DNA from: an uncultured Chloroflexia bacterium
GTDB taxonomy: Bacteria > Chloroflexota > Limnocylindria > Limnocylindrales > CSP1-4
Direction: 5' to 3'
Assembly (NCBI GenBank): GCA_963741915.1
Contig: CAVUJW010000013.1
Span: 203,791-267,790, forward strand
DNA: 64,000 nucleotides
Shown piece after piece: positions 19,153-64,000 of the stretch. How positions within the stretch are numbered: the stretch's first letter is position 1; each line of letters opens with the position of its first letter. The notes beneath the pieces were generated by a model. The model did no database searches. It was given only the letters and a program-made list of their open reading frames with translations, and had not been told where the DNA came from. The translations under genes were made by a program, and so were the position numbers.

Positions 19153-19209
19153 GGCGGGGCATCGGCCGAACCGAGTCGACCCTCCCGCAGCCGCACTGGA
19201 CCCCGACCC

Positions 19210-34020: not shown

Positions 34021-34658
34021 GTTGCTGACTCCTTCGTGCGCTCGAGGCACCGGTCGCCATCGATGGCATAGCGGTCGCCGCACGCCGGGCACCTCGCCTC
34101 GCCCGACGCATCGCCGGGCAGGGGCAGCCCGTCTCGGCCGACCAGCCGCCTCCCGCAGGCACACACCCAGCCGAGCCGGCGGGCGGGGTTGCCCGCCACC
34201 AGCGCGTGGTCGGGCACGTCGCGGGTGACCACCGCGCCGGCGCCCACCGTGGCGAACCGCCCCACGTCCCGGCCGGCGACGACGACGGCACCCGCGCCGA
34301 TCGAGCAGCCGGTGCGGAGGCGGATCGGGCTCACCACCCAGTCGTCGGCGCGGGCGAGGTCCCCGGCTGCGGTGATCGCCCGGGGGAACCGGTCGTTGGT
34401 GAGGATCGCGTTGGGCCCGATGAACACCCCGTCCTCGACCGTCACGCCGTGGTAGACGAGGGCCGCGTTCTGAATCTTGACCCGGTCGCCGATCTCGACG
34501 CCCTCGTCGATGAACGCGTCGCGGCCGACGATGCAGTCGGCACCGATCCGGGCCCCGGTCCGAACCTGCGCTCGGTGCCAGATGCTCGTTCGCGGCCCGA
34601 CCGACACGTCGGGCTCGAGATCGGCGCTGGCGTGGATGCGGGCGGAGGGATCGATCAC
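34017..34658 (-). CDS. left-handed beta-helix (hexapeptide) N-acetyltransferase (WbpD/WlbB-like)
   Basis: 213 aa, MIDPSARIHASADLEPDVSVGPRTSIWHRAQV...NDRFPRA...VAGNPARRLGWVCACG. It has hexapeptide repeats and a C-terminal Cys-rich tail. Confidence 0.8.
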   Translation of the reverse strand: MIDPSARIHASADLEPDVSVGPRTSIWHRAQVRTGARIGADCIVGRDAFIDEGVEIGDRVKIQNAALVYHGVTVEDGVFIGPNAILTNDRFPRAITAAGDLARADDWVVSPIRLRTGCSIGAGAVVVAGRDVGRFATVGAGAVVTRDVPDHALVAGNPARRLGWVCACGRRLVGRDGLPLPGDASGEARCPACGDRYAIDGDRCLERTKESAT

Positions 34659-34969
34659 GGACGGGAAGGGCTCCTACGGCGGGCAGGGCACGGTCCGCCC
34701 GCACGCAGGACCATAGCAGGGGCTCCGCGGACTCGGCGGCGGTCCTCGATCCGAGGGCGCGTCCGCGGGATCTATTCGTTGCTCGCCGGCACCGAATTGC
34801 ATGCCGCCTGGGATTGGGCCAGTCGGGGGTGCGCTACCTTGGAGGCGCGCCGCTGCAACCGCCGGGCGCCCCGAAGAGGTAGGTCTTTGGAGTTCCGGAT
34901 CTTCGTGCTGCGTTCATGCGCCACCGTCCGCGTCCGGCGCCCGTACGAACCACGCTATCGCGGCGAGGA

Positions 34970-36133
34970 ATGGGTGAGCTCATCATGAAGGTCGCACTAC
35001 GGCGGGAACTTGCTCGCCTGGATGCAGCCGACGGCGTGACGCTCATCCGCCTGGGTGGCTCGGCCTGGGACGACGCGCTACAAGCCGTCCCGGCGAGCGT
35101 GTTCCATGGCGCCGGGTACCACCGCTACAGCCGTGGATACGGGGAGGGCGAGCCCTACCTGGCGGTCGTGGGGGATCGGGTCAGGGGCCTGGCATGGCCG
35201 TACATCCTTCGGCCGATCACGGACCTCCCCTGGCTGGCCGGCAGCGGCGCCACGGACGTGCATTCCGTGTACGGATATCCTGGGCCGCTGGCCTGGGGTC
35301 ATGCTCCCGGTGACGGCTTCGTCGCGTGGGCCCTGGGCCAGGTCGGCGAGACCTGGAGAAGGCAGGGGGCGGTGAGCGCCTTCACTCGCTTCAATCCCGT
35401 GCTCGACAACGCCGGGCTCGTCCGGGACCTTGCGAGCGACGACGGCTGGATCACCCCCGCGGGCGTGAAGGCAGCAGGAGCGACGGTGTCCGTGGATCTC
35501 ACGCTCGACCAGGACCTGGTTCGCGCGCAGTACGGGCGCGACCTGGCTCGATCGATCGCGGCGCTCCGGCGACACGGGCTGGTGACCGTGCACGACGAGT
35601 GGTGGGATCACCTGTCGACGTTCGCCGATCTCTATCGCAACACGATGACGCGGATCGGCGCGGCAGATTTCTACTGGTTCCAGGAGCGCGACTTCGAGCG
35701 GCTGAGGGCCGACGTGGGAGACCACCTGCACCTGCTGGTCACGACGCTCGACGACGTCGTGGTAGCCGCCGGCCTGTTCCTCGAGCACGATGGTGTCGTC
35801 GAGTGGCACCTCGTCGGATCGAACGACCGGTTTCGCGACCTCTCGCCGTCCAAGCTGCTCGTCGACGACGCGATCCAGTGGTCGAGGGAGCGTGGCAACC
35901 GCGTGCTGCACCTCGGAGGCGGCCGCGGTGGTCGCGAGGACTCCCTGTACTGGTTCAAGAGCCGCTTCTCGCCCCAGCGCCACCAGTTCAGCACGGGTCG
36001 CTGGATCCTGGAGCCCGACCGGTATGCAGCATTCACGGCGGCTCGGCAGGCCGCGCTGCCTTCGGGGGCCTCGAGCGATCCGGACTTCTTCCCAGCCTAC
36101 CGGGCGCCGGTGCGCCCGGACGGCGCCTCCTGA
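34970..36133 (+). CDS. FemAB/BioF2-like acyltransferase, paralog 2
   Basis: The ORF is open from 34916; the start is ATG 34970 or 34985. Shared blocks: VYGYPGP, FTRFNPVL, VVEWHLVGS, RVLHLGGGRGGREDSLYWFKSRFS. Confidence 0.7.
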   Translation: MGELIMKVALRRELARLDAADGVTLIRLGGSAWDDALQAVPASVFHGAGYHRYSRGYGEGEPYLAVVGDRVRGLAWPYILRPITDLPWLAGSGATDVHSVYGYPGPLAWGHAPGDGFVAWALGQVGETWRRQGAVSAFTRFNPVLDNAGLVRDLASDDGWITPAGVKAAGATVSVDLTLDQDLVRAQYGRDLARSIAALRRHGLVTVHDEWWDHLSTFADLYRNTMTRIGAADFYWFQERDFERLRADVGDHLHLLVTTLDDVVVAAGLFLEHDGVVEWHLVGSNDRFRDLSPSKLLVDDAIQWSRERGNRVLHLGGGRGGREDSLYWFKSRFSPQRHQFSTGRWILEPDRYAAFTAARQAALPSGASSDPDFFPAYRAPVRPDGAS

Positions 36134-36153
36134 CCGGAGGCGCGGCAGTCATC

Positions 36154-36856
36154 CTAAGGGCTGCCGGACGTCGAGACTGATGCCTCCGGGTCCGCTGCCG
36201 ACAGGGCGCTCGCAGATGATCCGCCGTTGGGCAGGACGAGGCCCGCATCGATCGAGGCGAGGAAGCGCGGGGGCATGATGATGTCATCGAGCGTCTGTGT
36301 GACGCGCACGCCCCGCCGGCCCAGGACCTGCCCGACGGTGCGGCCGATGATCTGGACGTCGAGCCACAGGCTCCAGTGATCGATGTACCAGATGTCCATC
36401 TCGAGCCGTTCTTCGAACGGCACCATGTGGCGGCCGGAGATCGCTGCCCAGCCGGTGATCCCAGGCCTCATCTCGTGGCGCCTGGCCTCGCGCGGCGTGT
36501 AGCAGGCCGAGATACTCCTCGAGCAGCGGTCGCGGGCCGACCAGGCTCATGTCGCCGCGCAGCACGTTCCACAGCTCGGGCAGCTCATCGAGGCTGGAGG
36601 CCCGCAGGAACCGACCGAGCCTGGTGACCCGGATCTCATCGGTACGAAACCAGGTATCGCCGGGCGGGACTGGTCGCATCGTCCGGAACTTGACGATCGT
36701 GAACGGCCGCCCGTCCCGACCCGGCCGGCGCTGGCGGAACAGGATCGGCCGGCCCATCGTCGCCGCGATGGCGACGGCCGTCCAGGCGAGGATCGGCGAC
36801 AGGACCAGAATGCCCAGGATGGCCCCGACGATATCCATCGCGCGCTTCAAGGCCAT
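36154..36856 (-). pseudogene. small phosphoglycosyl transferase, copy 2, with an apparent 1-nt frameshift near 36502
   Basis: MALKRAMDIVGAILGILVLSPILAW...GRPILFRQRRPGRDGRPFTIVKFRTMR...[29 protein letters not shown] is in the frame of ORF 36284..37885. It continues as YTPREARRHEMRPGITGWAAISGRH...DHWSLWLD in the frame of ORF 36154..36471. Confidence 0.8.
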
Positions 36857-37885
36857 TGACGCAGGCCTGGAGGCTGGAACGCCGCCCCCGCCGGCGGCGC
36901 CCGTGCGGCCCATCCGCCCCGATCTCCCGCGCAGAACCCGCTCGCGGAGCCGATGCACGGCGCCGCCGGGGACCCGTCGCAGGCAGCCCAGCACGTAGGT
37001 GTACCACTGGTCGCCGTACGGCACGTAGCAGCGCACCCGGAACCCCTCGCGCACCAGCCGGCGCTGGAGGTCTGGGCGGACCCCCATGAGCATCTGGAGC
37101 TCGAACGAGGACCGGTCCCGGCCGGCGACGTCCGCCGCACGGCGGACGGTCTCGATCGCGGCTGGATCGTGGGTTGCGATCGCCGGGTCGGTCGCTCCCG
37201 CCATGAGCGTCTCGATGTCGGCCAGGAACGCCCGATCGACCTCGTCCTTCGCGTGGAACACGATCTCGGGGGACTCCCAGTAGCCGCCCTTGACCAGCCG
37301 GATCCGACTCCCGTCCGCCATCAACCGCGGCAAGTCCTCGCGATGACCGAGGAGATAGGACTGCAGCACGATGCCGACGCGCTCGGATCCGAACGCCGCA
37401 CGCGCCTGCTCGAACAGGCCGATCGTGGCCTCGACGTAGCGCGACTCCTCCATGTCGATCCGCACGAAGATGCCGTGGTCGCGGGCGCGCTCGAGGATCC
37501 GCCACAGCTGGGTCCGGCACAGCCCGCCGTCGATGTCCAGGCCGATCTGGGTGAGCTTCAGCGACAGGTGCAAATCGACCCCTGACGCCAGGATCCCGTC
37601 GAGCGCCCCGATGACCTCATCCACGGCGGCCACCGCCTCGGACTCAACCGTCACGTGCGTGCCGACGTGGTTGAGCGTGGCCGCGATCCCCTGCGCGTTG
37701 AGCGCCCGGACCTTGTCCAGCGCGGCGGGTAGGTCCTCCCCGGCAACGAACCGCCAGGCGACGTCGCGCACGAACGGCGTGCTCATCGCGAACCTACGCA
37801 CCGTCGACTTGCCGGCGACCCAGCCCAGCACCCGGCGCGCGGCCGATCGGCGCGGCTCGGCGGCCTCGGGCGTAGCCGTCAACAC
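36857..37885 (-). CDS. proline dehydrogenase family domain, reading without a stop into the sugar transferase
   Basis: FVAGEDLPAALDKVRALNAQGIAATLNHVG...SLKLTQIGLD...FVRIDMEESRY...VGIVLQSYL...IRLVKGGYWE...ATHDP...FELQMLMGV...RCYVPYGDQWYTYVLG follows the Pro_dh domain pattern. There is no in-frame stop before ATG 36856. Confidence 0.75.
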
Positions 37886-39016
37886 TCGATCGCCTCGCGC
37901 AGGGCCGCGGCCACCCGCCCGACCTCCTCGTCGCTCAGCCGGCTGGAGAAGGGGAGAGCGAGCGTGGACGCGGCGACCCGCTCCGTGACCGGGAAGTCAC
38001 CCGGCGCGAAACCGAAGGTCGAGCGATAGAACGGTTGGAGGTGGAGCGGCGCGAAGTACGGACGGGCCGGGACGCCGAGCTCGGCCAGGGACCCGATCAC
38101 ACGGTCGCGGTCGATCGCCGGGTCGAGCCGGACGACGTAGACGAACCAGTCCACGAGCTCGCCCGCACCGGCACGTGGGAGACGGACCCAGGCTTCCTCG
38201 CCCAGCGCGTCCTCGTAGGCCGCGGCGACCCGGGCGCGGCCGGCGCGCAGCTCGGCCAGACGCTCGACCTGGGCCACGCCGAGCGCGGCCGAGAGCTCGT
38301 CGAGTCGGTAGTTGTATCCGAGCCGCACGTGACGCAGCCACGTCCCGTCCTGGTCGCGTCCCTGGTTGCGCAGGCTGCGCATGGTGTCGGCGAGCGTGCT
38401 GTCGTCGGTCACCACCATCCCGCCCTCGCCGGTGGTGATCTGCTTGTTGGGGTAGAAGGCGAACACCGCGACGTCGCCGAAGTTGCCGAGCGGGCGCCCG
38501 CCGACCGTGGAGCCGAGACCCTCGCACGAATCCTCGACGATCATCCAGCCGTGGCTCCTGGCGATGCGCTCGATTTCGACGATGCGGCACGGCCGGCCGA
38601 ACACGTGGACGGGGAGCACCGCGCGAGTTCGGTCGGACGGCGGCCGCCTCGACCAGATCGGGATCGAGCCCGAGGCTGTCCTCCTCGATGTCCACGAACC
38701 GGGGGATGGCACGCTCGTAGAGCAGGCAGTTGGCCGATGCGACGAAGCTGAACGGGGTGGTGATGACCTCGTCGCCCTCGCCGATTCCGAGCGCTCGCAC
38801 GCTCATGTGGAGGCCGGCCGTTCCGCTCGAGCAGGCGACCCCGTCTCGCCGACCGGCGAGCGCCGCGATCGCGGCCTCGAACCTCGGCGCGAACGGGCCA
38901 AGCGCGAGCACGTCGCTCTGGAGGACCTGCGTCACGAGTTCGACCTCGCGTGGCCCGATGTCGGCCCGCGCGAGGGGGATCGACCGGCGCGTGGCAGGGT
39001 TCGGCGAGGAAGGCAT
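37879..39016 (-). pseudogene. DegT/DnrJ/EryC1/StrS family aminotransferase, copy 2 (PglE-like), apparent 1-nt frameshift near 38638
   Basis: N-terminal part (frame of ORF 37997..39076): IPLARADIGPREVELVTQVLQSDVLALGP...CSSGTAGLHM...DPDLVEAAA. C-terminal part (frame of ORF 37879..38712): SDRTRAVLPVHVFGRPC...EDSCEGLGS...FAFYPNKQITTGEGG. Confidence 0.8.
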
Positions 39017-39227: not shown

Positions 39228-39532
39228 GTGGGCTTCCGTCTCGTTGGCCCGGGCGACGGGCCGCTGCTGGCCAACCTCTTCGACCACCTCGACACCACGT
39301 CTTCGTCCGCACCCGTCGGGGCCGCCGGGCGCACGGCGGGTCGCCATCCGCAAGGGGCGCCACGACCTCATCCTGGTCGAGCGCAGGAGGGCCATCGCCA
39401 CGGCATGCTCCGAGGCTGGAGGAGGGCGAGTCGATCGGCCCTTGCTACGCGAGGAGGGAGCTGGGCGAGCTCGTGATGGAGGTGGAGCTGACGGACGACG
39501 CCGACGGCGCCGCGCAGGTGGCGCCCGGATGA
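39228..39532 (+). pseudogene. possible degraded small GNAT-type acetyltransferase remnant
   Basis: GNAT-like pieces are scattered over three frames: VGFRLVGPGDGPLLANLFDHLDTT, then LRPHPSGPPGARRVAIRKGRHDLILVERRRAIA, then HGMLRGW, then EEGESIGP...ELGELVMEVELTD...APG*. The last frame's stop overlaps the next ATG (ATGA). Interpretation is tentative. Confidence 0.25.
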
Positions 39533-40551
39533 CCGCGCGGCTGCTCACGCCGGAGTCGGACGAGTGGACGGCGTTCCTCGGCCGGGTCCGCCACGACTTC
39601 TATCACCTGCCCGCGTACGCCGCGGTGGGCGCTACGCACGAGCCCGGCGAGCCGCTGGCGCTGCTCGTCCAGCGTGGCGGCGGCAGCCTGTTGCTGCCGC
39701 TCATCGCGCGGGACACCGGGTCGGGTGGCCGCGATGCCGTCTCCCCGTACGGGTATCCGGGTCCGCTGCTGGACGGCGCGATTGGGCCCGACCTCGAGCG
39801 GGAGGCCCTCGCCGAGGGCATCAGCGCGCTCCACGACGCCGGCTTCGTGTCGCTGTTCGTGCGCTACCACCCGCTGCTGAACGGCCAACCGCCGGCCGGG
39901 CTGGGGACCGCAGTCCGCCATGGTGACACCGTGGTGGTCGATCTGGCCCTGTCCGAGCCCACGATGTGGCACCAGACGCGGGAGAACCATCGCCGCAACA
40001 TCACCCGGGCCCAGAGCCTCGGCTATGCGCCGCGGATGGACACGACCTGGGCGCGCTTCGAGGGGTTCAAGCGCCTGTACGCGGTCACCATGGATCGCAT
40101 CGCGGCGTCGCCCTTTTACCGGTTCGATGACGCCTACTTCGACGGGCTCCGCGACGCGCTCGGCGGGTCCGTCCATCTGGCGGTCCTGGAGAAGGGAGAC
40201 GACCTCGCGGCGGCGGCGCTGTACGTGGAGACCGACGGCATCGTCGAGTACCACCTGTCGGGGTACGCGGACGAGCACGCGGACGTCCAGCCGACCAAGC
40301 TGCTGATGGACTTCGCGCGCCGCTGGGCGAAGGCGCGCGGGAACCGGTACCTGCACCTCGGTGGTGGTGTCGGTGCGCAGCGGGACTTCCTGTTCTCGTT
40401 CAAGCGCGGCTTCTCGCCGCTCCTTCGGACCTACTGGACCCTGCGGGTCGTCATCGACGAGCCGCGCTACCGGGAGCTGGTCGCGGCTCGGGGCTTCGCG
40501 CTCGTGGAAGATGCGGACGGGTACTTCCCGCTCTACCGGGCCCCGGCGTGA
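39529..40551 (+). CDS. FemAB/BioF2-like acyltransferase, paralog 3
   Basis: 340 aa from ATG 39529: MTARLLTPESDEWTAFLGRVRHDFYHLPAYAAV...SPYGYPGP...FVRYHPLL...HRRNITRA...IVEYHLSGY...RYLHLGGGVG...FSFKRGFS. Confidence 0.75.
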   Translation: MTARLLTPESDEWTAFLGRVRHDFYHLPAYAAVGATHEPGEPLALLVQRGGGSLLLPLIARDTGSGGRDAVSPYGYPGPLLDGAIGPDLEREALAEGISALHDAGFVSLFVRYHPLLNGQPPAGLGTAVRHGDTVVVDLALSEPTMWHQTRENHRRNITRAQSLGYAPRMDTTWARFEGFKRLYAVTMDRIAASPFYRFDDAYFDGLRDALGGSVHLAVLEKGDDLAAAALYVETDGIVEYHLSGYADEHADVQPTKLLMDFARRWAKARGNRYLHLGGGVGAQRDFLFSFKRGFSPLLRTYWTLRVVIDEPRYRELVAARGFALVEDADGYFPLYRAPA

Positions 40552-42016
40552 GCTTCCTGGGCGTCACGCCATCCGCTGCCGTCGCCGTGGTGGCCCCGGC
40601 CTCGGGGGAGCAGCTCACCTACGCGGAGCTCGTCCGGCGTGGGACAGCCATCGCCGCCGAGCTTGGCGGGGGAAGCAACTCCTGTTCGTCGTGGCCCGGA
40701 ACGCCGTGGCGAGCGCGGCGACCTACTGGGGCGCATTGGACGCCGGGCATGCGGTGGCGCTCCTCGACGGGCACGCCGCGGACGCGGTGACGGCCGCGCT
40801 GGTCGACACCTACCGACCGACGTGGCTGGCCGGCCCGGCGGACCTGCCCGACCGCCTTGCGGCGTCCGGCGTCGACATCGCCGCGACCCGTGTGGTCGCC
40901 GGCCTGACGCTGATCCGCACGGGTGCGGATAGAGCCGGCAACATCCACCCTGACCTCGGTCTGCTGCTCACCACGTCGGGCACGACGGGAAGCCGGAAGC
41001 TGGTCCGCCTGCGGGTAGGAAGCGTCGAGGCGAACGCGCGATCGATCGCCACGTGCCTCTCGCTGGCGGATGACGAGCGCCCGCTCGCCGCCCTGCCGAT
41101 CCACTACTCGTTCGGCCTGTCGGTGGTCAACAGCCACTGGCTGGTCGGGGCGACCGTCGTCCTCTCGGACCACAGCGTGCTGCAGCGCGAGCTGTGGGAC
41201 ACGTTCGACGACGCGGCGTGCACCTCCCTGGCTGGCGTCCCGTACACGTACCAGTTGCTGGAGCGGGTGGGGTTCCGCGAGATGCGGCTGCCGAGCCTCC
41301 GCTCGCTCCAGCAGGCCGGCGGCGCGCTCGATCTCAAGCTGGCGGCCATCTACCGCGACCATATGGCCGCTCGCGGTGGCCGGTTCTTCGTGATGTACGG
41401 CCAGACGGAGGCGACGGCCCGGATCGCGGTTGTTCCGCCGCACCGACTCGTCGACAAGCTTGGCTCAGCCGGCCTGCCCATCCCGGGAGGCCGGCTGCGG
41501 ATCGAGCTCGACGCCGCGGAGGACGACTCGCGTCGGCCCACCCCGGCTGACTCGCGAGCGGTCGGCGGCGTCGGTGTGTCACCCGTCGGTGAGCTCGTCT
41601 ACGAGGGGCCCAACGTCATGCTCGGCTATGCCTCCACCGCCGCCGACCTGGCCCTTGGCGATGAGCTCGGGGGCGTCCTCCGAACCGGTGATCTGGGCTA
41701 CCTTGACGACGAGGGCTTCGCCTTCCTGGTCGGTCGCAGCAAGCGGATTGCCAAGGTGTTCGGCCACCGCGTCAACCTCGATGAGGTCGAGGCGCTGGTC
41801 CGCGAAGCGGGCCCGGCGGCCGTCGTGGGCGGCCTAGACGCGATCTGGGGCTTCTGTGCGTTCGGCACGCAGGCGGAGCTCGACGCGCTTGGGCGGCAGC
41901 TTGCCCAGCGGCTCCGCCTTCACCATTCCGCGTTCCACTTCCGGCGTATCGAAGCCATCCCCACCACCGGGTCGGGGAAGATCGACTACCGGGCGGTCCA
42001 GGCATGGGTGGACTGA
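40548..42016 (+). pseudogene. AMP-dependent synthetase/ligase (adenylate-forming, DltA/acyl-carrier-loading type) with an indel in G5 run 40668-40672
   Basis: The GTG at 40548 overlaps the upstream stop: VSFLGVTPSAAVAVVAPASGEQLTYAELVRRGTAIAAELGGG. The frame then switches to that of ORF 40361..42016: KQLLFVVARNAVASAATYWGALDAGHAV...LLLTTSGTTGSRKLV...FFVMYGQTEAT...RTGDLGYLDDEGFAFLVGRSKR...GSGKIDY. Confidence 0.8.
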
Positions 42017-42102
42017 CAAACCCCGGCTCCGCGGGCGCTGGGTTTCGAGATGGTCAAGTTCCAGCCGGTGCGCGAGGATGAGCGTGTCGTGAGGGATGAA
42101 CG

Positions 42103-42765
42103 ATGAGCCGGGTCGTGCTGTTCGGAACGGGCGCGGTCGCCCGGGTGGCGCGCTTCCTGTTCGAACAGGAGTCGCCGCACGAGGTCGTCGCGCATGCCGT
42201 CGACCGCGACCACTGGGAGGGTGGACGGATCGACAGGGCCCCGATCGTCCCATTCGAGGACCTGCTGGCCGACTACCCGCCGGGCGAAGTGAAGCTGTTC
42301 GTCGCCGTCGGCTACAGCCGGATGAACGGGTTCCGGGCCGAGCGGTGTGCGCGTGCGAGGGCGATGGGCTACGAGCTCGTCACGCACGTCAGCCCGCGCG
42401 CCTCGACGTGGCCCGATCTCACCATCGGAGACAACTGCCTGGTGATGGACGAGGTGATCATCCACCCGTTTGCCAGGGTGGGCAGCGACGTGATCCTGTG
42501 GAGTGGCAGCCACATCGGCCACGATTCAGTGATCGGCGACCATTGCTTCGTATCGTCGCATGCTGTCGTCTCGGGCTACGCGACGGTCGAGGAGCGCTCC
42601 TTCCTGGGGTCCAACTGCACGATCCGCGATGGGATCACCATTGCCCGGGAGTGTGTGATCGGGGCCGGCGCCGTGGTGACCCGGTCCACCACGCCGCGCT
42701 CCGTCCACGCGGCGGCAGCCGCAATCCGGCTGCCGGCGACCAGCGACCGCCTCCCGAATCTGTGA
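42103..42765 (+). CDS. NeuD/PglD/VioB-family sugar N-acetyltransferase (hexapeptide fold)
   Basis: 220 aa. It has an N-terminal Rossmann-like part (MSRVVLFGTGAVARVARFLF...) followed by hexapeptide repeats (IGDNCLVMDEVIIHPFARVGSDVILWSGSHIGHDSVIGDHCFV...). Confidence 0.8.
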   Translation: MSRVVLFGTGAVARVARFLFEQESPHEVVAHAVDRDHWEGGRIDRAPIVPFEDLLADYPPGEVKLFVAVGYSRMNGFRAERCARARAMGYELVTHVSPRASTWPDLTIGDNCLVMDEVIIHPFARVGSDVILWSGSHIGHDSVIGDHCFVSSHAVVSGYATVEERSFLGSNCTIRDGITIARECVIGAGAVVTRSTTPRSVHAAAAAIRLPATSDRLPNL

Positions 42766-42837
42766 TCCGGGGCGCTCCAGCGGGGACCTCGCGGATGGAC
42801 CTGACCGGGCGGCCGACGTCGGCGTTCTCGCGGAGGG

Positions 42838-43686
42838 TCATTCCGCTGCCGGCTTCCGGGGCGCCGCGTGACGTGTCACCAGGTAGGCCTGCGAGTCGCG
42901 TCCATAACCCAGATCGGGTCGGGGCGTCGCCTCCATCTCGGGGTGATCGGCCAGCCAGAGCTCGAACGCGCGCGCCTCGCCCAGGCCCCGCTCGTCGAGG
43001 TGGGCCGCCGACCAGTCATCGAAGAAGATGACCGACCGATCCGCGATCAGCGGGGTGCAGAACTCGAGCGCCGTCCGCGTCGACGACTCGAGCACGCAGT
43101 CCATCATGATCAGTGGCGCTCGTTCCACTCCCAGCCGCGCGCGGGTGTCGGCGGTCAGCGTCTCCTCGTACCAGCCGGGCACGAACTCGATGCGGCCCTT
43201 GGGCACGCCCAGCCGGCGAAGGTTCGCGTTGGTCAGCCGCAGGTCCGAGTACAGCTGACCGGGCTGCAGGGTCCAGATGCCGTCGTGACCTTGATCCTCG
43301 GGCATGCCCTGGAAGGAGTCGAACCCGATCAGTCGCAGGCGATCGGCGCCGACGATCATGGTCGCGCGATACATGCACGCCATCGACGTGCCGACATAGA
43401 CGCCGAATTCGAGGTACGCGGAACCCGGGCCCAGGCCGTCGGGCTCCAGCAGCCTCAGGCTGGCCGTCAGGCGATCCACGAGATCGGCCTCGGGAACCTT
43501 GATCAGGCCCTCCATCAGCCCGAGCCGGACCTGGAGCAGCCCGAGGCGCGCGCGAACGGGCCTGGGCAGGCGCTTGAAGATCCAGCGCAGCAGGGGGCGC
43601 AGGTGGAGGCGGTCGACCATGCGGAGTCCGGCGACCGCAACGGTCCGAGCGATAGGTTCGGACATGTGTGGCGGGAACCATAGCAT
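42838..43686 (-). CDS. TylF/MycF-like class I SAM-dependent (O-)methyltransferase
   Basis: 282 aa (alternative start 43665). Sequence: AYLEFGVYVGTSMACM...IGFDSFQGMPE...FVPGWYEETL...IMMDCVLESSTRTALEF resembles macrocin-O-methyltransferase-family proteins. Confidence 0.7.
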   Translation of the reverse strand: MLWFPPHMSEPIARTVAVAGLRMVDRLHLRPLLRWIFKRLPRPVRARLGLLQVRLGLMEGLIKVPEADLVDRLTASLRLLEPDGLGPGSAYLEFGVYVGTSMACMYRATMIVGADRLRLIGFDSFQGMPEDQGHDGIWTLQPGQLYSDLRLTNANLRRLGVPKGRIEFVPGWYEETLTADTRARLGVERAPLIMMDCVLESSTRTALEFCTPLIADRSVIFFDDWSAAHLDERGLGEARAFELWLADHPEMEATPRPDLGYGRDSQAYLVTRHAAPRKPAAE

Positions 43687-43963
43687 CGCCCCGTTGGCGA
43701 CGCGATGCGGAAGATGCCACCTGTTGCCGGAGCCCGGTGGAACCCGGGTTTGCCCGGTGCGTGCCTATACTGGCGCGGCGTCCACCCCTGCGGGCGGACC
43801 AGCCCTCATTCGGCTCGTCGGAGGCGCTCGGGCATGTGGCCCAACCAACCCGCGTCCAGTCGTCGTTGGCGACGGTCCCGCGATCGGTTTCGAGTGCCTG
43901 CGTGGCGCCGGAGGTCATTCCAGGAGCGGCCGTCACGAGCGAGGGCCGAGTCGGGTTGCCGAG

Positions 43964-44848
43964 GTGCGTGAGGCGCCGGCAGCGACGCCCCGGCCGGCCG
44001 GGAATGGCAATGCATCGGTCTCGATCCCGGAGCTCGAGGAGCTCGCCCGCCAGGTCCGGGTCGAGGTCGTCCGCGCCGTGGCCAGGGCAGGAGGCGGCCA
44101 CCTGGGTGCCTCGCTGTCCGCCGCGGAGGTGCTGGTGGCGCTGTACTTCTCTGAGCTCGCCGTCCGTCCGGACGATCCATTGTGGGACGGTCGCGATCGG
44201 TTCGTCCTTTCGAAGGGACACGCGGCCCTGGCCCTGTACGCAACGCAGGCGCTGCGTGGCTACTTCCCGCTCGACGAGCTGGCCACGTTCGGCCGCATTG
44301 ACTCCCGGCTCCAGGGCCACCCGGACATGACTCGCCTACCGTCGGTGGACATGTCGTCGGGCGCGCTCGGGGTCGGCTTTTCGGCGGCGGTCGGGATCGC
44401 CCTGGGCAATCGTCTCCGGGGCAGCACGGCTCGCACCTGGACGATGCTCGGCGATGGCGAGTGCCAGGAGGGCGAGGTCTGGGAGGCCGCCTTCATCGCG
44501 GCTCGCTACGGGCTGGACAACCTGGTCGCGATCGTCGACCTCAACGGCTTCCAGGTCATCGGCTGGCCGGGAACCCGACCCGGAACGCGGCTGCCACCGT
44601 GGCCCGCCGGTCCGCTCGGGCGACAGTGGGCGGCCTCGGGCTGGCGCGTGATCACCATGGACGGTCACGACATGGCGGCCGTCGTGCAGACCCTGGAGGG
44701 TGCCCGTCGGCTGCGGGGCAAGCCCACCGTCATCATCTCCAAGACCCTGAAGGGACAAGGCGTCTCGTTCCTGCGTGGCGTCCACTCTCGCCCGCTCACC
44801 GACGCCGAGCTGGCCCTCGCCCTGGAGGAGCTCGGTGAAGCGGGCTGA
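43964..44848 (+). CDS. transketolase, N-terminal (ThDP-binding) subunit
   Basis: Lies in the frame of ORF 43499..44848: LARQVRVEVVRAVARAGGGHLGASLSAAEVLVALYF...DRFVLSKGHAALALYA...GHPD...SSGALGVGFSAAVGIAL...MLGDGECQEGEVWEAA. The start is uncertain (GTG 43964 chosen; there is no in-frame ATG). Confidence 0.8.
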   Translation: MREAPAATPRPAGNGNASVSIPELEELARQVRVEVVRAVARAGGGHLGASLSAAEVLVALYFSELAVRPDDPLWDGRDRFVLSKGHAALALYATQALRGYFPLDELATFGRIDSRLQGHPDMTRLPSVDMSSGALGVGFSAAVGIALGNRLRGSTARTWTMLGDGECQEGEVWEAAFIAARYGLDNLVAIVDLNGFQVIGWPGTRPGTRLPPWPAGPLGRQWAASGWRVITMDGHDMAAVVQTLEGARRLRGKPTVIISKTLKGQGVSFLRGVHSRPLTDAELALALEELGEAG

Positions 44849-45817
44849 GGCCGCCGATCGCGGTCCGGGCCTCACCCTGCGCGAGGCGTTCAACCGCACA
44901 CTGGTCGAATTGGCCCGCGATCACCCCGAGATCGTGATGCTCGACGCGGACAATGCGACCGCGACCGACCGAAGGGATCTTCGCCGAGGCGCACCCGTCG
45001 AAGTTCCTCCAGATGGGGGCTGCCGAGCAGAACATGGTCGGCGTGGCGGCCGGCCTTGCCGCCACAGGGTTCATCCCGTTCGTCTCATCGTACGCTTGCT
45101 TCCAGGTATTCCGGGCTCACGATCAGGTTCGCGTCCTGCTGGCGCAGACAGGGTTGCCCGTCCGGCTCGTCGGTCAGTCAGCCGGGATCCTCACCGGACT
45201 GACCGGCAAGACGCACCAGAGCATCGACGACGTTGCGGCAATGCGCGCGATGCCGGGCATGACCGTGGTCGTGCCAGGTGACGAACACGAGACGCGCGAG
45301 GTCCTGCGCTGGTCGCTCGGCCACCGTGGTCCTGTTTACATCCGGTTGGCGCGCGGAACCGCTCCGCTCATGTTCGACGATCAGTACCGGTTCGAGATCC
45401 CCGAGCGCGATCCTGGTCCGCGAGGGCGAGCAGCTCGCGATCATGAGCACCGGGCTGCAGACCTCAAGGGTGCTGGCTGCCCTGCCAGCCCTCGAAGCCG
45501 CCGGCATCCGACCATCGGTCCTGCACCTGCCGACGATCAAGCCGCTCGACGAGGAGGCGGTCGTTGAGGTCGCTGGCCTGGCCCGACGGGTCGTCACGGT
45601 CGAGGACCACGTGATCATCGGCGGGCTCGGCGGCGCCGTGTGCGAGGTGCTCGGCGCCCGATGCCCGGTGCCGGTCCTGCGGCTCGGCATCGACGACAGG
45701 TACGCCGAATCCGCCCCGCACGACGAGCTCGTCGAGCGCTACGGCATCTCCCCCGGTGTCGTAGCGCGAAAGATCATCGCGTGGGCATCGGGCGTGGCGG
45801 GCGACCGCGGTGCCTGA
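44835..45817 (+). pseudogene. transketolase, C-terminal (pyrimidine-binding) subunit with two apparent frameshifts (~44956-44972 and C4 run 45399-45402)
   Basis: There are three colinear pieces. The first is LTLREAFNRTLVELARDHPEIVMLDADNATAT. The second is EGIFAEAHPSKFLQMGAAEQNMVGVAAGLAATGFIPFVSSYACF...MTVVVPGDEHE...YIRLARG...YRFEI. The third is AILVREGEQLAIMSTG...LHLPTIKPLDEEAV...VTVEDHVIIGGLG. Confidence 0.8.
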
Positions 45818-46967
45818 GCCGGCCGATCGTGGGCCAGCGCAGCGCGTGGACGCGACCCGGCTTCATGCCTGGACGGCGGCGATCGCGCGCCGGGTGGGCA
45901 CGCCGGGCGACATTGCCACGGACGTGGCCGACGTGCTCATCGCCGCCGACCTGCGGGGCGTGGAGTCGCACGGCACGTTCCGGCTCCCCGTTTACGCTCG
46001 GCTTGCGGAGGCGTCCGTGATCATGACCGACGCCCGGCCCGTGGCCGACGGCGGGACGCCGGTGCTCCGTCGCTGGAACGCCGGCGACGGTTGGGGTCCG
46101 CACGCCGGACGGGTGCTCATGGATGACGCGATCGAACGGGCCCGGGAGCTCGGCATGGCGGGCTCGATCGCCTACCGCGCGAGCCATTTCGGGATCGCCG
46201 GCTGGTATGCGATGCGCGCCGCGGCGCAGGGCATGATCGGGCTGACCCTCACCAACGCATCGCCGCTGGTCGCCCCCACGCGGTCGCATCAGCGGCTGCT
46301 GGGCACCAACCCCATCGCCGTCGCCGCCCCAGCCGGCCGGTTCGGGATGTTCGTGCTCGACATGGCGACGTCGGCGATCACGTGGGGTCGGGTGCTCGTC
46401 GCCGACCGCCGCGGGCGGGAGCTTCCCGCCGGGGTGGCGATGGACGCCGATGGCGGTCCGTCGGTCCTTCCGGCCGATGTCCTCCGCTCCGGGGCTCTCC
46501 TGCCGCTCGGGGGAACTGAGGCAACGGCCGGCTACAAGGGCTACGGCCTCGCCATGATGGTCGACGTCCTGACCGGGGTCCTGGCGGGCGCCAACTTCGG
46601 ATCGGGTGTAATCCCGTTCTCGACGACCCGGGGCCCCTCCAACCTGGGCCAACTGTTCCTGGTCGTGAACCCGGCGGCGCTCGGCGACGATGGGTTCGTG
46701 GCGCGAATGGAGGCGCTGTGCGGCGAGCTCGTCGCTGCCCCTGCGCTGTCCGATGCGCCCGGCCCGGTGCTTATCCCCGGCCAGCCCGAGGCAGTGATGG
46801 AGGACGAGCAACGGCGGGACGGGATCCGGCTCGAGGCGGGACACCTTGAAGCGCTGGTTCAGCTCGGCGAGCGGCTCGGGGTCGCGTTTCCGCGCACAAC
46901 ACGATCGGATCGCTCCAGCTCGGCCGCCGCGGCGCCTTATCCGATCAGGGATGGGGCAACCCGATGA
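45810..46967 (+). CDS. Ldh_2 family (malate/L-lactate/sulfolactate/pyrroline-2-carboxylate type) NAD(P)H oxidoreductase
   Basis: 385 aa, ...VADVLIAADLRGVESHGTFRLPVYARL...SHFGIAGWYAMRAA...TNPIAVAAPAG...DMATSAITWGRV...GYKGYGLAMMVDVL. Confidence 0.8.
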   Translation: MPEPADRGPAQRVDATRLHAWTAAIARRVGTPGDIATDVADVLIAADLRGVESHGTFRLPVYARLAEASVIMTDARPVADGGTPVLRRWNAGDGWGPHAGRVLMDDAIERARELGMAGSIAYRASHFGIAGWYAMRAAAQGMIGLTLTNASPLVAPTRSHQRLLGTNPIAVAAPAGRFGMFVLDMATSAITWGRVLVADRRGRELPAGVAMDADGGPSVLPADVLRSGALLPLGGTEATAGYKGYGLAMMVDVLTGVLAGANFGSGVIPFSTTRGPSNLGQLFLVVNPAALGDDGFVARMEALCGELVAAPALSDAPGPVLIPGQPEAVMEDEQRRDGIRLEAGHLEALVQLGERLGVAFPRTTRSDRSSSAAAAPYPIRDGATR

Positions 46968-47215
46968 CCGCCATCGACGTCCTCGGCAAGACTTTCCGGG
47001 AGGCGCTCGGTCTGCCCTACGATGCCGCTCTCGACGGGGCTGCGTACGGCCGGACCGAGGGCTGGGACTCCGTGGGGCACCTGCAGCTGATGGTCGGGCT
47101 CGAGACCACGTTCCGGATCTCCGTGGCGGCGGACGACGTGTTCGAGATGAGCACCTTCGAGGCAGTCCGCCAGGTCCTCCGGGATCGCTACGCCATCGAT
47201 CTGCCGGACCGATGA
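46964..47215 (+). CDS. acyl/peptidyl carrier protein
   Basis: 83 aa; the ATG overlaps the upstream stop. The motif EGWDSVGHLQLM contains the phosphopantetheine-attachment Ser in a DS context. Size and helix pattern fit a carrier protein. Confidence 0.75.
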   Translation: MTAIDVLGKTFREALGLPYDAALDGAAYGRTEGWDSVGHLQLMVGLETTFRISVAADDVFEMSTFEAVRQVLRDRYAIDLPDR

Positions 47216-47301
47216 TCAAGGCCCTGACCACCTCGCACCCGAGTGGCTCCGACGTTACCGCGCCAGCAAGCGACTCAATCGCCCCCTGGCGCGGTGGCTG
47301 A
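47212..47301 (+). CDS. 29-aa coupled micro-ORF between the carrier protein and FemAB paralog 4
   Basis: The ATG overlaps the carrier-protein stop (ATGA): MIKALTTSHPSGSDVTAPASDSIAPWRGG*. GC3 is ~79%. The stop lies 3 nt before GTG 47305. Confidence 0.2.
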   Translation: MIKALTTSHPSGSDVTAPASDSIAPWRGG

Positions 47302-47304
47302 TCC

Positions 47305-48408
47305 GTGCTCGCAGCACTGCTCGAACCCGGCGATCCCCGCTGGATCGACGTCCTCGAGCGGATCCCGCACGACATGTACCACCTCCCCGGGTATGCCACG
47401 TTCGCGACGCGCTGGCACGAGTCAGGCGAGGCCATGGCGTTCGTCGCCAGCGAGCGGGATTCGGACTTCCTGGTCCCGCTGATCGTGCGCGCGGTCCCGC
47501 CCCGGATCGCAGATCGCTCGGGGTCGTTCGATGCCACCGGCCCACGCGGCTACCCGGGCCCCATCGTGCGTTCGGGTCCGGATGGACCGGACCTGCCATT
47601 CCTCGAGAGTGCCATCGAAGCGCTCGTTGGCGAGCTGCACCAACGGCAGATCGTGACGGCGTTCGTGCGCTGCCACCCGCTGCTCTCGCCGCCACTCGAC
47701 GTGCTGCGCACGTTCGGCGACGTAGTCGACCACGGCGAATCGGTGTCGATCGATCTCGCCCGCTCGGCGGAACAGGCCTGGGCCGACACCCGCGAGAACC
47801 ACCGGCGGGCGGTCAATCGGGCACGGCGCAGCGGGTATGCCGTACGGATCGACACGGCGTGGACGCGGCTCGATGAGTTCCTCGCGATCCATGCGGCCGC
47901 CATGGACCGGCTTGGCGCCGCGCCGAGCCAGCGCATTGTCCGCGGCCAGATCCTGGACCTCCGCTCGTCGACGGGGAGCGCGCTCCACCTGGCCCTCGTC
48001 GAGCATGCCGGCGATCTCGCCGCCGCAGCGCTCCTGAGCGAGGTCGACGGGATCGTCGAGTACCACCTCGCCGCCACGGCGCCCGACCACGTGGCGGCGA
48101 GCCCGACGAAGCTGCTGATCGCCGAGATCACCGGCTGGGCGCGCGATCGCGGCGATCGAGTGTTCCACCTGGCCGGGAGCCTGCGACACGACGACCCCCT
48201 CATCCATTTCAAGCGCGGCTTCTCGCCGCTGGTCCACCGAGTGGCATCCTGGCGGCTCGTGGCCGACCCGGACGCGTACGCACGACTGGTCGATCGCTGG
48301 GAGCGGCTCAGCGGCCGGCCCGCGGAAGCCGCCGATGGCGACGCGCCGTTCTTCCCGGCCTATCGCCGCGAGATCGGCAGGGTGAACGGGGAGGACGGCA
48401 CGCCCTGA
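47305..48408 (+). CDS. FemAB/BioF2-like acyltransferase, paralog 4
   Basis: 367 aa, MLAALLEPGDPRWIDVLERIPHDMYHLPGYATF...PRGYPGP...FVRCHPLL...HRRAVNRA...IVEYHLAAT...RVFHLAGSLR...HFKRGFS. Confidence 0.75.
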   Translation: MLAALLEPGDPRWIDVLERIPHDMYHLPGYATFATRWHESGEAMAFVASERDSDFLVPLIVRAVPPRIADRSGSFDATGPRGYPGPIVRSGPDGPDLPFLESAIEALVGELHQRQIVTAFVRCHPLLSPPLDVLRTFGDVVDHGESVSIDLARSAEQAWADTRENHRRAVNRARRSGYAVRIDTAWTRLDEFLAIHAAAMDRLGAAPSQRIVRGQILDLRSSTGSALHLALVEHAGDLAAAALLSEVDGIVEYHLAATAPDHVAASPTKLLIAEITGWARDRGDRVFHLAGSLRHDDPLIHFKRGFSPLVHRVASWRLVADPDAYARLVDRWERLSGRPAEAADGDAPFFPAYRREIGRVNGEDGTP

Positions 48409-52582: not shown

Positions 52583-52708
52583 AGAATGGCCGCGGCGGCG
52601 GGCTCGCGTCTCGGCTGATCTCGCTCGGATCGGCGGCGGTGTCCCAGCTGGCTTTCGCGGCGTGCAGATGGGCGTTCCGGCCCGGTCTATTGGAGGAGGT
52701 GGGCCGAT

Positions 52709-62366: not shown

Positions 62367-64000
62367 ATGGGGAGTCTCCGTAGCGCCGAGGGTGCATTGG
62401 CAGTCCGCCGCTCTTTCCGTACATCGCCTCGTCCCTGGAGGGACACTGTCATCGGCCGACGCGGCGAGGCAGGCCAGGAACGACGGCTCAGCCTCTCGCA
62501 GCTGTCGCTTCGGCTCGCCCGGGGCGTCCGCGGTCGATACCTGCTCGCGATCGACCTTGTCGGCATCGTGTCGGCGGCCTACGTGGCGATGGCGATCCGC
62601 CTCGACGAGCTCACCGGCTTGCTCGCCGTCCCGGCATTCCCGCTGATCGTCATCCTGCTGCTGTCCGTTCGCACCGTCGTCAACATCCTGCTCGGGCTGT
62701 ACAGCCGGCGCTGGCGATACGCCAGCATCCCCGAGCTGGAGCGGATCGTCGGCGCGGCAACGCTGGGTTCCGTGGTCAGCATCGCGGTGTTCTACGGGAC
62801 GGCCATCATCTCGGACGGCGGCTGGACCAGCGGCTATCCCGCGGTCCTTCTGGCCCATCGAGCTGATGCTCAGCATCGCGATCCTGGGCGGCGTCCGGTT
62901 CGGCATCCGCGCAGCGGCCGAGGGCGTTCACCGCGATGGCGGGACGGCGCTCCAGCCCCAACCCACGCTGTTGTACGGCGCCGGTGACGCGGGCGTGCTG
63001 ATGGCCAGGAGCGCCGCGCGCTACCCGGGCTCCGGGGTGCGACCGGTGGGGTTCCTCGACGACGATCCGACCCTCGCCGGTGGGATCATCGCCGGCTACC
63101 GCGTCTTCGGTAGCCTGGACGCCCTTGGGCCCGCGGTCGTTTCGACGGGTGCCAAGGTCCTCCTGATCACGATGCCCAGCGCCTCCGGCGAAGCCGTCCG
63201 TCGCGTCGTCGAGGCTGCCCTCGCGCTTCATCTCGACGTGCGGACGGTGCCCTCCATCTCGGATCTCCTCGACGGCAGCATCGACGCCGGTCGCATCCGG
63301 CGCGTCCGGGTCGAGGATCTCCTCCGGCGCCCGATCGTCACCGATCATCACCCCGACGTCGAGCGGATCATCCGCGGTCGCACGGTCGTGATCACGGGCG
63401 GCGCTGGCTCGATCGGCTCCGAGCTGGCGCGCCAGGTGCTCGCCATCGGGCCCCGGCGGCTGGTGCTCGTGGACCGGGCCGAGAGCCCTTTGTACCTCGT
63501 CCAGCGGGAGCTCGAGACGCGACGCAACCGCGGGCGCGGGAGCGGCGAGCTGCGGATGCACCTCGCCAACGTCGCGAACCGCTCGGCGATGCAGCGGCTG
63601 ATCAGCGAGGAGGCGCCCGACGTCATCTTCCACGCCGCGGCCTACAAGCACGTGCCGCTCATGGAGGAGCATCCCTCGGACGCGGCCTACGTCAACATGG
63701 GTGGCACGCTCGCCCTGCTCGAAGCCGCGGAGGCCGGCGGTGTCGAACGGTTCGTGTTCGTGTCGACGGACAAGGCCGTCAAGCCGTCCAGCGTGATGGG
63801 GGCCAGCAAGCGGATCGGCGAGATGCTCGTCGCGAGCACCGCGGCCCGGACGGGTCGGCCGTACGTGTCGGTCCGGTTCGGCAACGTTCTGGGCTCGACG
63901 GGCAGCGTCGTGCCGATCTTCCAGGAGCAGCTCGAGAGCGGCGAGCCCCTCACCGATCACGGACGCGGAGATGACCCGGTTCTTCATGACCATCCCGGAG
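62367..64000 (+). pseudogene. membrane-bound nucleotide-sugar 4,6-dehydratase/epimerase (CapD/PglF/WbpM-like), 3'-partial, with two apparent 1-nt frameshifts (C3 run 62838-62840 and ~63955)
   Basis: The TM part is in the frame of ORF 62265..62987 (RYLLAIDLVGIVSAAYVAMAIRLD...YSRRWRYASIPEL). It continues in another frame: PRSFWPIELMLSIAILGG...LLYGAGDAGVLMAR...VGFLDDDP...VVITGGAGSIGSEL...FHAAAYKHVPLME...STDKAV.PSSVMGASKR...FGNVLGS.GSV.P.F. The final piece is ITDAEMTRFFMTIPE in a third frame. The start is uncertain. Confidence 0.8.

Follow-up and report, generated by a model that had tools for sequence, protein, structure and literature searches.

Within a 64,000-nucleotide stretch of an uncultured Chloroflexia genome (assembly GCA_963741915.1, contig CAVUJW010000013.1, positions 203,791 to 267,790; hereafter the window), we analysed a block of genes that combines an adenylate-forming ligase, a free-standing carrier protein, an Ldh_2-family oxidoreductase and a two-subunit transketolase-like enzyme inside a Wzx/Wzy-type polysaccharide locus. 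On balance, and with moderate confidence, we interpret this block from its sequence as a carrier-dependent module that would furnish the 4-amino group of a bacillosamine-type sugar with a short hydroxy- or oxo-acyl substituent. The chemistry, which has so far not been described, would most likely yield an unusual acyl group destined for an amino sugar. The host is a high-GC soil Chloroflexota (Limnocylindria-like) bacterium, and the block would be the acyl-decoration module of its surface-polysaccharide locus.

Genes were called from third-position GC and homology (the G+C content of the window is ~71%), domains were scored as Pfam and NCBIfam profile matches, and solved relatives were identified as sequence matches in the PDB. 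The genes of the block, together with the one that precedes it, are as follows:

39529..40551, + strand: FemAB/Acetyltransf_6-like transferase, paralogue 3 (Acetyltransf_6 E=2e-11; FemAB 22.3 bits, cut-off 24)
40548..42016, + strand: ANL-superfamily adenylate-forming ligase, ~490 aa (PF00501 E=4e-33, 115 bits; 1-bp deletion after 40669)
42103..42765, + strand: PglD/PerB/NeuD-type left-handed beta-helix (hexapeptide) N-acyltransferase (TIGR03570 169.5 bits, cut-off 160.8)
42838..43686, - strand: TylF-family S-adenosylmethionine-dependent O-methyltransferase (PF05711 35.5 bits, cut-off 23; profile positions 94-232 of 264)
43979..44848, + strand: transketolase-like subunit binding thiamine diphosphate (ThDP), the N subunit, 289-294 aa, unbroken (PF00456 E=2e-47)
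44835..45817, + strand: transketolase-like pyrimidine-binding/C-terminal subunit, the C subunit (Transket_pyr E=4e-29 and Transketolase_C E=4e-25, in different frames)
45810..46967, + strand: Ldh_2-family NAD(P)-dependent 2-hydroxyacid/2-oxoacid oxidoreductase (PF02615 328 bits, E=7e-98)
46964..47215, + strand: 83-aa free-standing carrier protein (predicted phosphopantetheine site Ser36; ATG overlapping the Ldh_2 stop)
47305..48408, + strand: FemAB/Acetyltransf_6-like transferase, paralogue 4 (Acetyltransf_6 E=3e-10, LPG_synthase_C E=0.002), directly after the carrier

The genes named in the original prediction (the ligase, the hexapeptide transferase, TylF, the transketolase-like pair, Ldh_2, the carrier and FemAB paralogue 4) are all present at these positions, and their domain matches are significant. 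Its remark that none of them is needed for standard nucleotide-sugar synthesis was too strong, as it fails for the PglD-type acetyltransferase, a standard part of bacillosamine-type synthesis. The start of the ligase gene overlaps the stop of FemAB paralogue 3. Further downstream, the genes for the two transketolase-like subunits overlap by 14 bases, those for the C subunit and Ldh_2 by 8, and those for Ldh_2 and the carrier by 4, so that these four genes form one tightly coupled operon. The TylF gene lies on the opposite strand and is transcribed divergently from that of the N subunit.

Conservation of the block was assessed in the Chloroflexota from the neighbourhoods of the closest homologues of the window Ldh_2 (loci numbered from L001). 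In L001, whose Ldh_2 is 83% identical and which lies on a 2.6-Mb contig, the gene order is identical and all genes are unbroken. The core order starts with the hexapeptide transferase, TylF (- strand), the N subunit, the C subunit, Ldh_2 and the carrier and ends with either DegT or a FemAB-like gene; it was found again in at least eight further independent loci (L001/L007, L005, L006, L009, L038, L039, L042 and one JGI contig), with identities down to 62% for the N subunit and 67% for Ldh_2. There, the block always stands among DegT, Bac_transf and FemAB-like genes. This recurrence bears out the earlier proposal that the block works as a unit linked to the synthesis of amino-sugar glycans, and the synteny check suggested at the time, of both transketolase-like genes, Ldh_2 and the carrier near FemAB-like genes, found the arrangement conserved in Chloroflexota glycan loci. 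Orthologues of Ldh_2 that are at least 64% identical always adjoin the carrier gene. Homologues of at most 59% identity (L004, L010-L027) were set aside, since they lie in unrelated contexts, for instance beside a DAO oxidase, and are uninformative on the module. The transketolase beside an Ldh_2 gene in L033 was also discarded, because it is a canonical fused enzyme of 666 aa next to pyruvate kinase and the adjacency is by chance.

Two related loci, L002/L008 and L003, have neither the transketolase-like pair nor TylF and keep the hexapeptide transferase, Ldh_2, the carrier, the ligase, FemAB-like genes and DegT. TylF is found in all seven Chloroflexota-type loci that carry the pair and have upstream DNA, and in neither of the two loci that lack the pair. 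Because the pair and TylF are present or absent together, they constitute an accessory sub-module that is dispensable. Their joint gain and loss between the hexapeptide transferase and Ldh_2 genes also speaks for a role on the nucleotide sugar, in which the ThDP enzyme would add a two-carbon ketol branch or extension to a UDP-4-keto-6-deoxy-N-acetylhexosamine (HexNAc), TylF would O-methylate, and the carrier, ligase and Ldh_2 would belong to a separate acylation route. For enzymes of the YerE and E1 types, the ThDP-dependent addition of such a two-carbon branch to keto sugars is established. Moreover, characterised TylF-family enzymes methylate sugar hydroxyls (the PDB relatives of the window protein are MycF and NovP), and two arginines kept in the pocket of the C subunit could bind the nucleotide diphosphate. 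However, the transketolase-like pairs of nonulosonic-acid loci, described below, accompany a carrier, a ligase, a short-chain dehydrogenase/reductase (SDR) and LuxCE, not a TylF homologue, and in the window the C subunit, Ldh_2 and the carrier are translationally coupled. We regard this alternative as unlikely.

The association of transketolase-like genes with the carrier extends beyond the Chloroflexota. The carrier family was detected in 56 metagenome loci, and the 24 of these carrier-anchored loci with at least 5 kb of flank were counted. A related ligase lay within 7 kb in 20 of them, a split transketolase-like pair in 10 and DegT in 12; Ldh_2 was found in only 2 and a FemAB-like gene in only 1. 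Outside the Chloroflexota, the carrier loci bearing the pair were nonulosonic-acid loci (L049, L054, L057, L060, L065, L070 and L073, among others). L057 and L070 encode PseB/PseC/NeuB/cytidylyltransferase-type enzymes, and their cassette comprises a GNAT transferase, the carrier, an SDR, the N and C subunits, the ligase, LuxE and LuxC, in two different gene orders. As carrier and ligase stand beside a distantly related split transketolase-like pair in nonulosonic-acid loci of other bacteria, the link between transketolase and carrier, already proposed from the window alone, is real and recurrent. Between the two glycan-linked groups of transketolase-like proteins, sequence identity is 33-37%, and either group shares ~40% with the genuine split transketolase of Carboxydothermus hydrogenoformans; such low identity makes independent recruitment plausible. 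An oxidoreductase flanks every pair, Ldh_2 in the Chloroflexota loci and an SDR in the nonulosonic-acid loci, and such a constant neighbour would fit a reduction that comes after ketol or oxo-acid chemistry. A homologue search with the nonulosonic-type C subunit returned metagenome proteins only and linked no cultured organism of known glycan structure.

Matches to the solved split transketolase 6YAK reach E=2e-74 for the N subunit (against its N chain) and E=1e-75 for the C subunit. The N subunit keeps the ThDP/metal motif GDGECQEG...DLNG (GDG...N) and the equivalents of His37, His77, His110 and His258 (residue numbers are those of human transketolase, read from the alignment), and these N-subunit features are conserved in all of the transketolase groups. 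In transketolase, the N-subunit histidines surround the cofactor-bound intermediate, dihydroxyethyl-ThDP. The cofactor-activating Glu366 of the C subunit is also kept (AEQN). The substrate site of this subunit carries S345A, H416S and D424T, with Arg318 and Arg474 kept, and its motifs are changed from LSKST to NATAT, from THAG to QSAG and from GEDG to GLTG. The structural literature on transketolase assigns binding of the substrate phosphate to Ser345, His416 and the arginines, and binding of the sugar (hydroxyl) to Asp424. Replacement of the phosphate-binding Ser and His and of the sugar-binding Asp therefore argues against ketose phosphates as substrates. Ala, Ser and Thr occupy the positions of Ser345, His416 and Asp424 in the window, L001, L005, L009, L039 and L042; in L006 the Ser is kept, the His is replaced by Ser and the Asp by Ala. 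In the nonulosonic-acid group, both arginines are lost as well. Judged by these residues, the transketolase-like pairs are very probably catalytically active with ThDP, on substrates other than ordinary sugar phosphates.

With the C. hydrogenoformans enzyme (6YAJ/6YAK) the window pair shares the two-subunit architecture, the ThDP motif, the catalytic Glu and the N-subunit histidines; it differs in the C-subunit motifs and in its genomic context, a glycan operon. A canonical N subunit and a match at E=1e-75 to a biochemically characterised split transketolase would suit the cell's own pentose-phosphate transketolase, placed in the locus by chance. This explanation is highly improbable, however, given that the substrate-binding residues are replaced, that some glycan loci have the pair while others of the same synteny lack it, and that the pair is operon-coupled to Ldh_2 and the carrier. 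A Limnocylindria-type split transketolase was also seen in L036 (8001-9844), beside a transaldolase-family gene. It had been considered as a housekeeping control and was dropped as a clean canonical one because the GEDG motif is missing; the canonical His is absent too (SYAGLFTGMTG). This atypical motif suggests that atypical transketolase-like enzymes may be common in this lineage outside glycan loci too.

The original prediction had turned to the naphthyridinomycin/quinocarcin pathways for a mechanism, in which the transketolase-like pair would draw a C2 glycolaldehyde unit from a ketose phosphate to form a glycolyl-S-carrier, and a FemAB-like enzyme would N-glycolylate the amino sugar. Glycolicacyl-S-acyl carrier protein (ACP) is formed by QncN/QncL/QncM (quinocarcin), NapB/NapD (naphthyridinomycin) and SclQ1-4 (scleric acid), and the system requires a lipoyl-attachment and E2 acyltransferase component, supplied by the QncL C-terminus or by SclQ4 (PMC6335953). 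The window shares with these pathways a split ThDP-dependent transketolase-like enzyme (N subunit ~300 aa; pyrimidine-binding and C-terminal part ~330 aa) encoded beside a small free-standing ACP, the same parts as in SclQ1-3 (PMC6335953). Here the counterpart of that adjacent ACP is the carrier, two genes downstream of the C subunit, and in both cases the unit would be destined for amide or ester linkage. The conserved N-subunit histidines, which would hold the dihydroxyethyl-ThDP intermediate, and the recurrence of the linkage between carrier and transketolase also favour such a mechanism. In contrast, no lipoyl/E2 match (Biotin_lipoyl, 2-oxoacid_dh) was found in the window open reading frames (ORFs) scanned or in the Pfam tables of the syntenic loci L001, L005 and L006, and the window pocket is without the phosphate-binding Ser and His and without the Asp. 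The known pathways, for their part, have no adenylating ligase, Ldh_2 or FemAB-like enzymes and feed a nonribosomal peptide synthetase, whereas the window block would feed a glycan. The ligase, which would be superfluous on the glycolyl route, is present in nearly every locus, and related loci keep the carrier without the dispensable transketolase. Since the defining lipoyl/E2 acyltransferase was not found, we do not class the block with these systems, and the C2 mechanism proposed at the outset now appears improbable.

For the 83-aa protein with a DS motif, assignment as a carrier is supported by sequence comparison. All 26 of its weak PDB matches are ACPs aligned in register, and its D35-S36 aligns with D35-S36 of E. 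coli ACP, the phosphopantetheine position at the start of helix II. Six orthologues show no variation in the motif WDSV.H. In L001, a 66-aa ORF that precedes FemAB paralogue 3 was considered as a second carrier and rejected as probably spurious, being Arg-rich and lacking a DS motif. The sole NCBIfam match of the window carrier is the ACP AmcB. The ligase has as its top NCBIfam match TIGR03098, an exosortase-A-associated acyl-CoA ligase family, below cut-off, and as a weaker one AmcH, a 2-oxoglutaryl-ACP ligase. In cispentacin biosynthesis, AmcH is a stand-alone ligase that loads a 2-oxo-dicarboxylate on the stand-alone ACP AmcB (PMC10698177). The match of the window carrier to AmcB (23 bits against a cut-off of 80) and that of the ligase to AmcH (68 against 370) are both far below the cut-offs, and the window has none of the ketosynthase/chain-length factor (KS/CLF) partners, so we treat the resemblance as a lead and not as evidence of membership. 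Similarly, TIGR03098 for the ligase and TIGR03019 for FemAB paralogue 3, the best or only matches of these proteins and both below cut-off, are exosortase-A/PEP-CTERM families, which NCBIfam names tie to exopolysaccharide-associated systems; no exosortase or PEP-CTERM genes were found in the window.

The PDB relatives of the ligase are feruloyl- and fatty-acyl-CoA synthetases and MenE (E ~1e-23), followed by DltA and prolyl-carrier ligases at E ~1e-11. From these matches, the enzyme resembles acid:CoA/ACP ligases more than amino-acid adenylating enzymes. The DltA and prolyl-carrier matches would also accommodate a Dlt-like scheme, in which the ligase loads an amino acid (e.g. D-Ala or Pro), the aminoacyl-carrier and/or aminoacyl-tRNA supply four FemAB-like paralogues that assemble a short peptide on the amino sugar or uronic acid, and Ldh_2 and the transketolase-like pair have unrelated supply roles. 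Such a scheme draws on the presence of four FemAB/Acetyltransf_6 paralogues in the locus, one of them weakly matching the aminoacyl-tRNA-dependent MprF C-domain, and on a proline dehydrogenase (ProDH) domain fused to a phosphoglycosyl transferase. We nevertheless think it improbable, as acid-CoA ligases (E=1e-23) are closer to the ligase than DltA is, the sole family match of the carrier is the acyl carrier AmcB, and in Chloroflexota loci the carrier has no more constant neighbour than Ldh_2, to which it is translationally coupled.

The Ldh_2 protein matches its family over the full length (PF02615 profile positions 1-332 of 333), and it reached no NCBIfam equivalog cut-off. Its PDB matches are headed by archaeal and Thermus type-2 malate dehydrogenases and L-sulfolactate dehydrogenase, followed by ureidoglycolate dehydrogenase and DpkA. 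Of the two substrate types suggested earlier, imino acids are now the less favoured, because the enzyme is closest to archaeal malate/sulfolactate-type 2-hydroxyacid dehydrogenases, not to the pyrroline/piperideine-2-carboxylate reductase DpkA.

Four FemAB/Acetyltransf_6 paralogues are encoded in the glycan locus (28489-29775, 34916-36133, 39529-40551 and 47305-48408). All of them match the related family Acetyltransf_6, with weak matches to FemX and the MprF C-domain. For paralogue 2, the PF02388 score (39.3 bits) lies above the cut-off of 24; paralogue 3 (22.3 bits) falls just short of it, is 83% identical to its 341-aa L001 orthologue and has TIGR03019 as its sole NCBIfam match; paralogue 4 has no PF02388 match and reaches FemX in the PDB at E=0.017. 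The position directly 3' of the carrier is also filled by a FemAB-like gene in L001, L002, L005, L006, L037 and L038. For the hexapeptide transferase, the top PDB match is the perosamine N-acetyltransferase 4ea7 (PerB), followed by PglD.

The sugar that would be decorated can be read from further genes of the locus, three of which lie outside the block:

36100..37882, - strand: fusion of a proline-dehydrogenase domain with a PglC-type phosphoglycosyl transferase (1-bp insertion at ~36507)
37885..39016, - strand: DegT/PseC-type sugar aminotransferase, PglE-like (1-bp insertion at ~38639)
62902..64000, + strand: PglF-type membrane-associated UDP-HexNAc 4,6-dehydratase (CoA_binding_3 and Polysacc_synt_2), truncated by the window end

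By homology, the PglF-like dehydratase (61% identical to its L003 homologue), the DegT protein, the PglD-like transferase and the PglC-like transferase make up a complete predicted bacillosamine-type pathway, whose product would be a bacillosamine-type UDP-4-amino-4,6-dideoxy-HexNAc. The locus has in common with the PglF/PglE/PglD/PglC pathway to di-N-acetylbacillosamine the dehydratase, the DegT enzyme, a transferase of the NeuD/PglB/VioB family and a Bac_transf protein; it adds the carrier-dependent module, the four FemAB-like genes and the ProDH domain on the transferase. The ProDH domain (PF01619; 232 bits, with a Thermus-type ProDH model) forms the N-terminal part of the fusion, which is unbroken in L001 (296-2194, 632 aa) and L005 (1884-3569, 561 aa); the phosphoglycosyl transferases of L006 and L002 come without it. 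We are aware of no function that a ProDH domain would serve on a transferase that initiates glycan synthesis.

On the acyl-decoration reading that we favour, the ANL ligase would adenylate a small carboxylic acid, most likely a 2-oxo/2-hydroxy (di)carboxylic acid or a sugar acid, and load it as a thioester on the phosphopantetheine at Ser36 of the 83-aa carrier. Ldh_2 would act on the unit or on its free-acid precursor, converting the 2-oxo into the 2-hydroxy form or the reverse, and so set the oxidation state at C2. In loci that have both, the transketolase-like enzyme and TylF would elaborate the unit further. The former would take a non-phosphorylated, possibly carboxylate-bearing substrate and, through either C2 ketol transfer or decarboxylative addition, form or cleave the C-C bond adjacent to a carbonyl; the unit would then be reduced and O-methylated. 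Finally, a FemAB/GNAT-fold transferase or, alternatively, the beta-helix transferase would take the finished acyl group off the carrier and place it on the free 4-amino group of the sugar. The substituent at N-4 would probably be something other than acetyl, or not acetyl alone. The choice of substrate, the order of the steps and the acting transferase are the parts of this scheme that we infer; what the sequences show directly is which genes are there, how they are coupled, their conserved and modular synteny, the recurring linkage of carrier, ligase and transketolase-like pair, a changed substrate pocket beside retained catalytic residues, and purifying selection.

Several points weigh against this interpretation. 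To our knowledge, characterised FemAB-family enzymes use aminoacyl-tRNA and not acyl-carrier proteins, and the transketolase-like pair and TylF could act on the nucleotide sugar instead of the acyl unit. The matches of the ligase to characterised families are all far below the family cut-offs. The PP-binding score of the carrier is 17.0 bits against a Pfam cut-off of 20.8, and its single-sequence AlphaFold model, with four helices and a mean predicted local distance difference test (pLDDT) of 54, is too poor to confirm the fold. Furthermore, seven frameshifts cluster in the glycan locus, and if they are real, the copy of the pathway in this genome is dead.

The frameshifts are 1-bp indels relative to unbroken orthologues, at ~30615, 31220, 36507, 38639, 40669, 44967 and 45397. 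Two fall in the UDP-sugar dehydrogenase gene, two in the C-subunit gene and one each in the genes for the ProDH-transferase fusion, the DegT protein and the ligase. In the ligase gene, the frames switch at 40670/40673 relative to the unbroken 496-aa orthologue of L001, and the ORF is uninterrupted, at 478-496 aa, in L001, L002, L003, L005 and L006. The two insertions in the C-subunit gene (44967 and ~45397), located by DNA alignment to L001, split it into three reading frames; once both inserted bases are removed, an unbroken protein of 327 aa results that is 90% identical to its orthologue. The dN/dS values against L001 orthologues are 0.08-0.24 for the frameshifted genes and 0.13-0.32 for the unbroken genes, and no in-frame stops or larger deletions were found in the broken genes. 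These values indicate purifying selection on the broken genes; together with the lack of in-frame stops, they mean that the lesions arose very recently or are artefacts.

The relatives come from "uncultured Chloroflexia" and Limnocylindrales metagenome-assembled genomes (MAGs) of the Microflora Danica project, which are Nanopore-only soil MAGs (PMC12313526). Two assemblies of one relative, L001 and L007 (99.7% identical), are distinguished by 1-bp indels. At least three of these affect coding sequence: the ligase gene has one, and the ProDH-transferase gene has two that compensate each other. We consider long-read consensus errors in a strain-variable region a likelier cause of the frameshifts than recent decay, and hold this with reasonable, not full, confidence. 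A real decay, which would leave a non-functional pseudogene cluster in this genome, draws on the density of the lesions (seven 1-bp indels in 30.6-45.4 kb against one, in a cimA/leuA-like gene, in the other ~45 kb) and on the C-subunit insertion at 44967, which is not in a homopolymer. We nevertheless find it doubtful, though less so than the other alternatives, in view of the selection on the broken genes, their freedom from in-frame stops and larger deletions, the Nanopore-only origin of the relatives and the indels between L001 and L007; strain-variable glycan loci may, besides, be prone to consensus errors.

Among the closest described counterparts of the acyl-decoration cassette is one from Aeromonas, which the RfbK-O tetronate cassette of the Vibrio cholerae O1 O-antigen resembles. 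In pseudaminic-acid flagellin glycosylation islands of Aeromonas, an uncharacterised cassette of ACP, 3-oxoacyl-ACP reductase, AMP-ligase, LuxE and LuxC, with no transketolase, has been described (PMC7874193). It shares with the window block a free-standing carrier, an adenylating ligase and an oxidoreductase in an amino-sugar glycan locus, and both are presumed N-acyl builders (PMC7874193). The window block differs in having Ldh_2 in place of the SDR, no LuxE/LuxC and FemAB-like enzymes instead of small GNAT transferases, and its sugar would be of bacillosamine type whereas that of the Aeromonas cassette is a nonulosonic acid. L057 and L070 amount to an Aeromonas-type cassette with a split transketolase-like pair added. 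We place the block among these broader carrier-plus-ligase acyl-decoration cassettes of amino-sugar glycan loci, a poorly characterised kind. Two features appear to be undescribed, namely the joining of such a cassette with Ldh_2, FemAB-like enzymes and a remodelled transketolase-like pair, and the fact that this pair recurs in different phyla; no account of a cassette of this kind was found in the literature on split transketolase or on transketolase with ACP, O-antigen, nonulosonic acid or flagellin glycosylation.

More tentatively, and with greater doubt than attaches to the module itself, the transketolase-like pairs of glycan loci may represent a new class of ThDP enzymes. Such enzymes would work with a free-standing carrier and an adenylating ligase, require no lipoyl/E2 partner, take non-phosphorylated substrates and make ketol-derived or C2-extended hydroxyacyl substituents of amino sugars. 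They would have been recruited at least twice, into Chloroflexota bacillosamine-type loci with Ldh_2 and FemAB-like enzymes and into nonulosonic-acid loci with an SDR and LuxCE. If confirmed, this would extend the uses of transketolase-like enzymes beyond sugar phosphates and the lipoyl-dependent glycolyl route, and would supply annotation rules for thousands of metagenome genes labelled 'transketolase'. In glycan loci of unrelated bacteria, carrier and ligase are repeatedly partnered by a transketolase-fold ThDP enzyme whose substrate pocket is remodelled, and a modular cassette with testable parts is now defined. Unusual N-acyl groups on amino sugars affect antigenicity, phage recognition and the surface chemistry of glycans; for most of them we know of no enzyme that makes them.

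In the remainder of the window, housekeeping genes including ilv/leu occupy the left 28 kb, and the Wzx/Wzy-type polysaccharide locus spans from ~28.4 kb to the right-hand end. Third-position GC is 0.80-0.88 in the glycan locus against 0.90-0.96 in the housekeeping genes. The glycan locus also encodes two Bac_transf phosphoglycosyl transferases, GT4 glycosyltransferases and Wzy-, Wzx- and Wzz/kinase-like proteins. A WbpA/WbpB/WbpE/WbpD-like set at 30493-34673 (- strand) comprises a UDP-sugar dehydrogenase, a GFO/IDH/MocA oxidoreductase, a DegT protein and a hexapeptide transferase; it is present in L003 too, and suggests that a 2,3-diamino uronic acid is also part of the same polysaccharide.

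Immediately 3' of the block lie three tandem genes for paralogous right-handed beta-helix proteins (48763-50598, 50746-52527 and 52619-53827, + strand), the C-terminal parts of which are 41-45% identical to a beta-helix protein at the matching position of L002. The strand opposite these genes carries long, spurious ORFs with high third-position GC. In L002, the beta-helix region downstream of the cassette contains a direct repeat of two 1.2-kb copies (15712-16886 and 18130-19304) that are 99% identical. Among the housekeeping genes, at 19210-21444 (+ strand), a second leuA/cimA-like gene has a frameshift near 20000, with an HMGL-like domain in one frame and HCS_D2 and LeuA_dimer in another; behind this gene comes a separate 184-aa ORF (20890-21444) made up of a LeuA_dimer domain alone.

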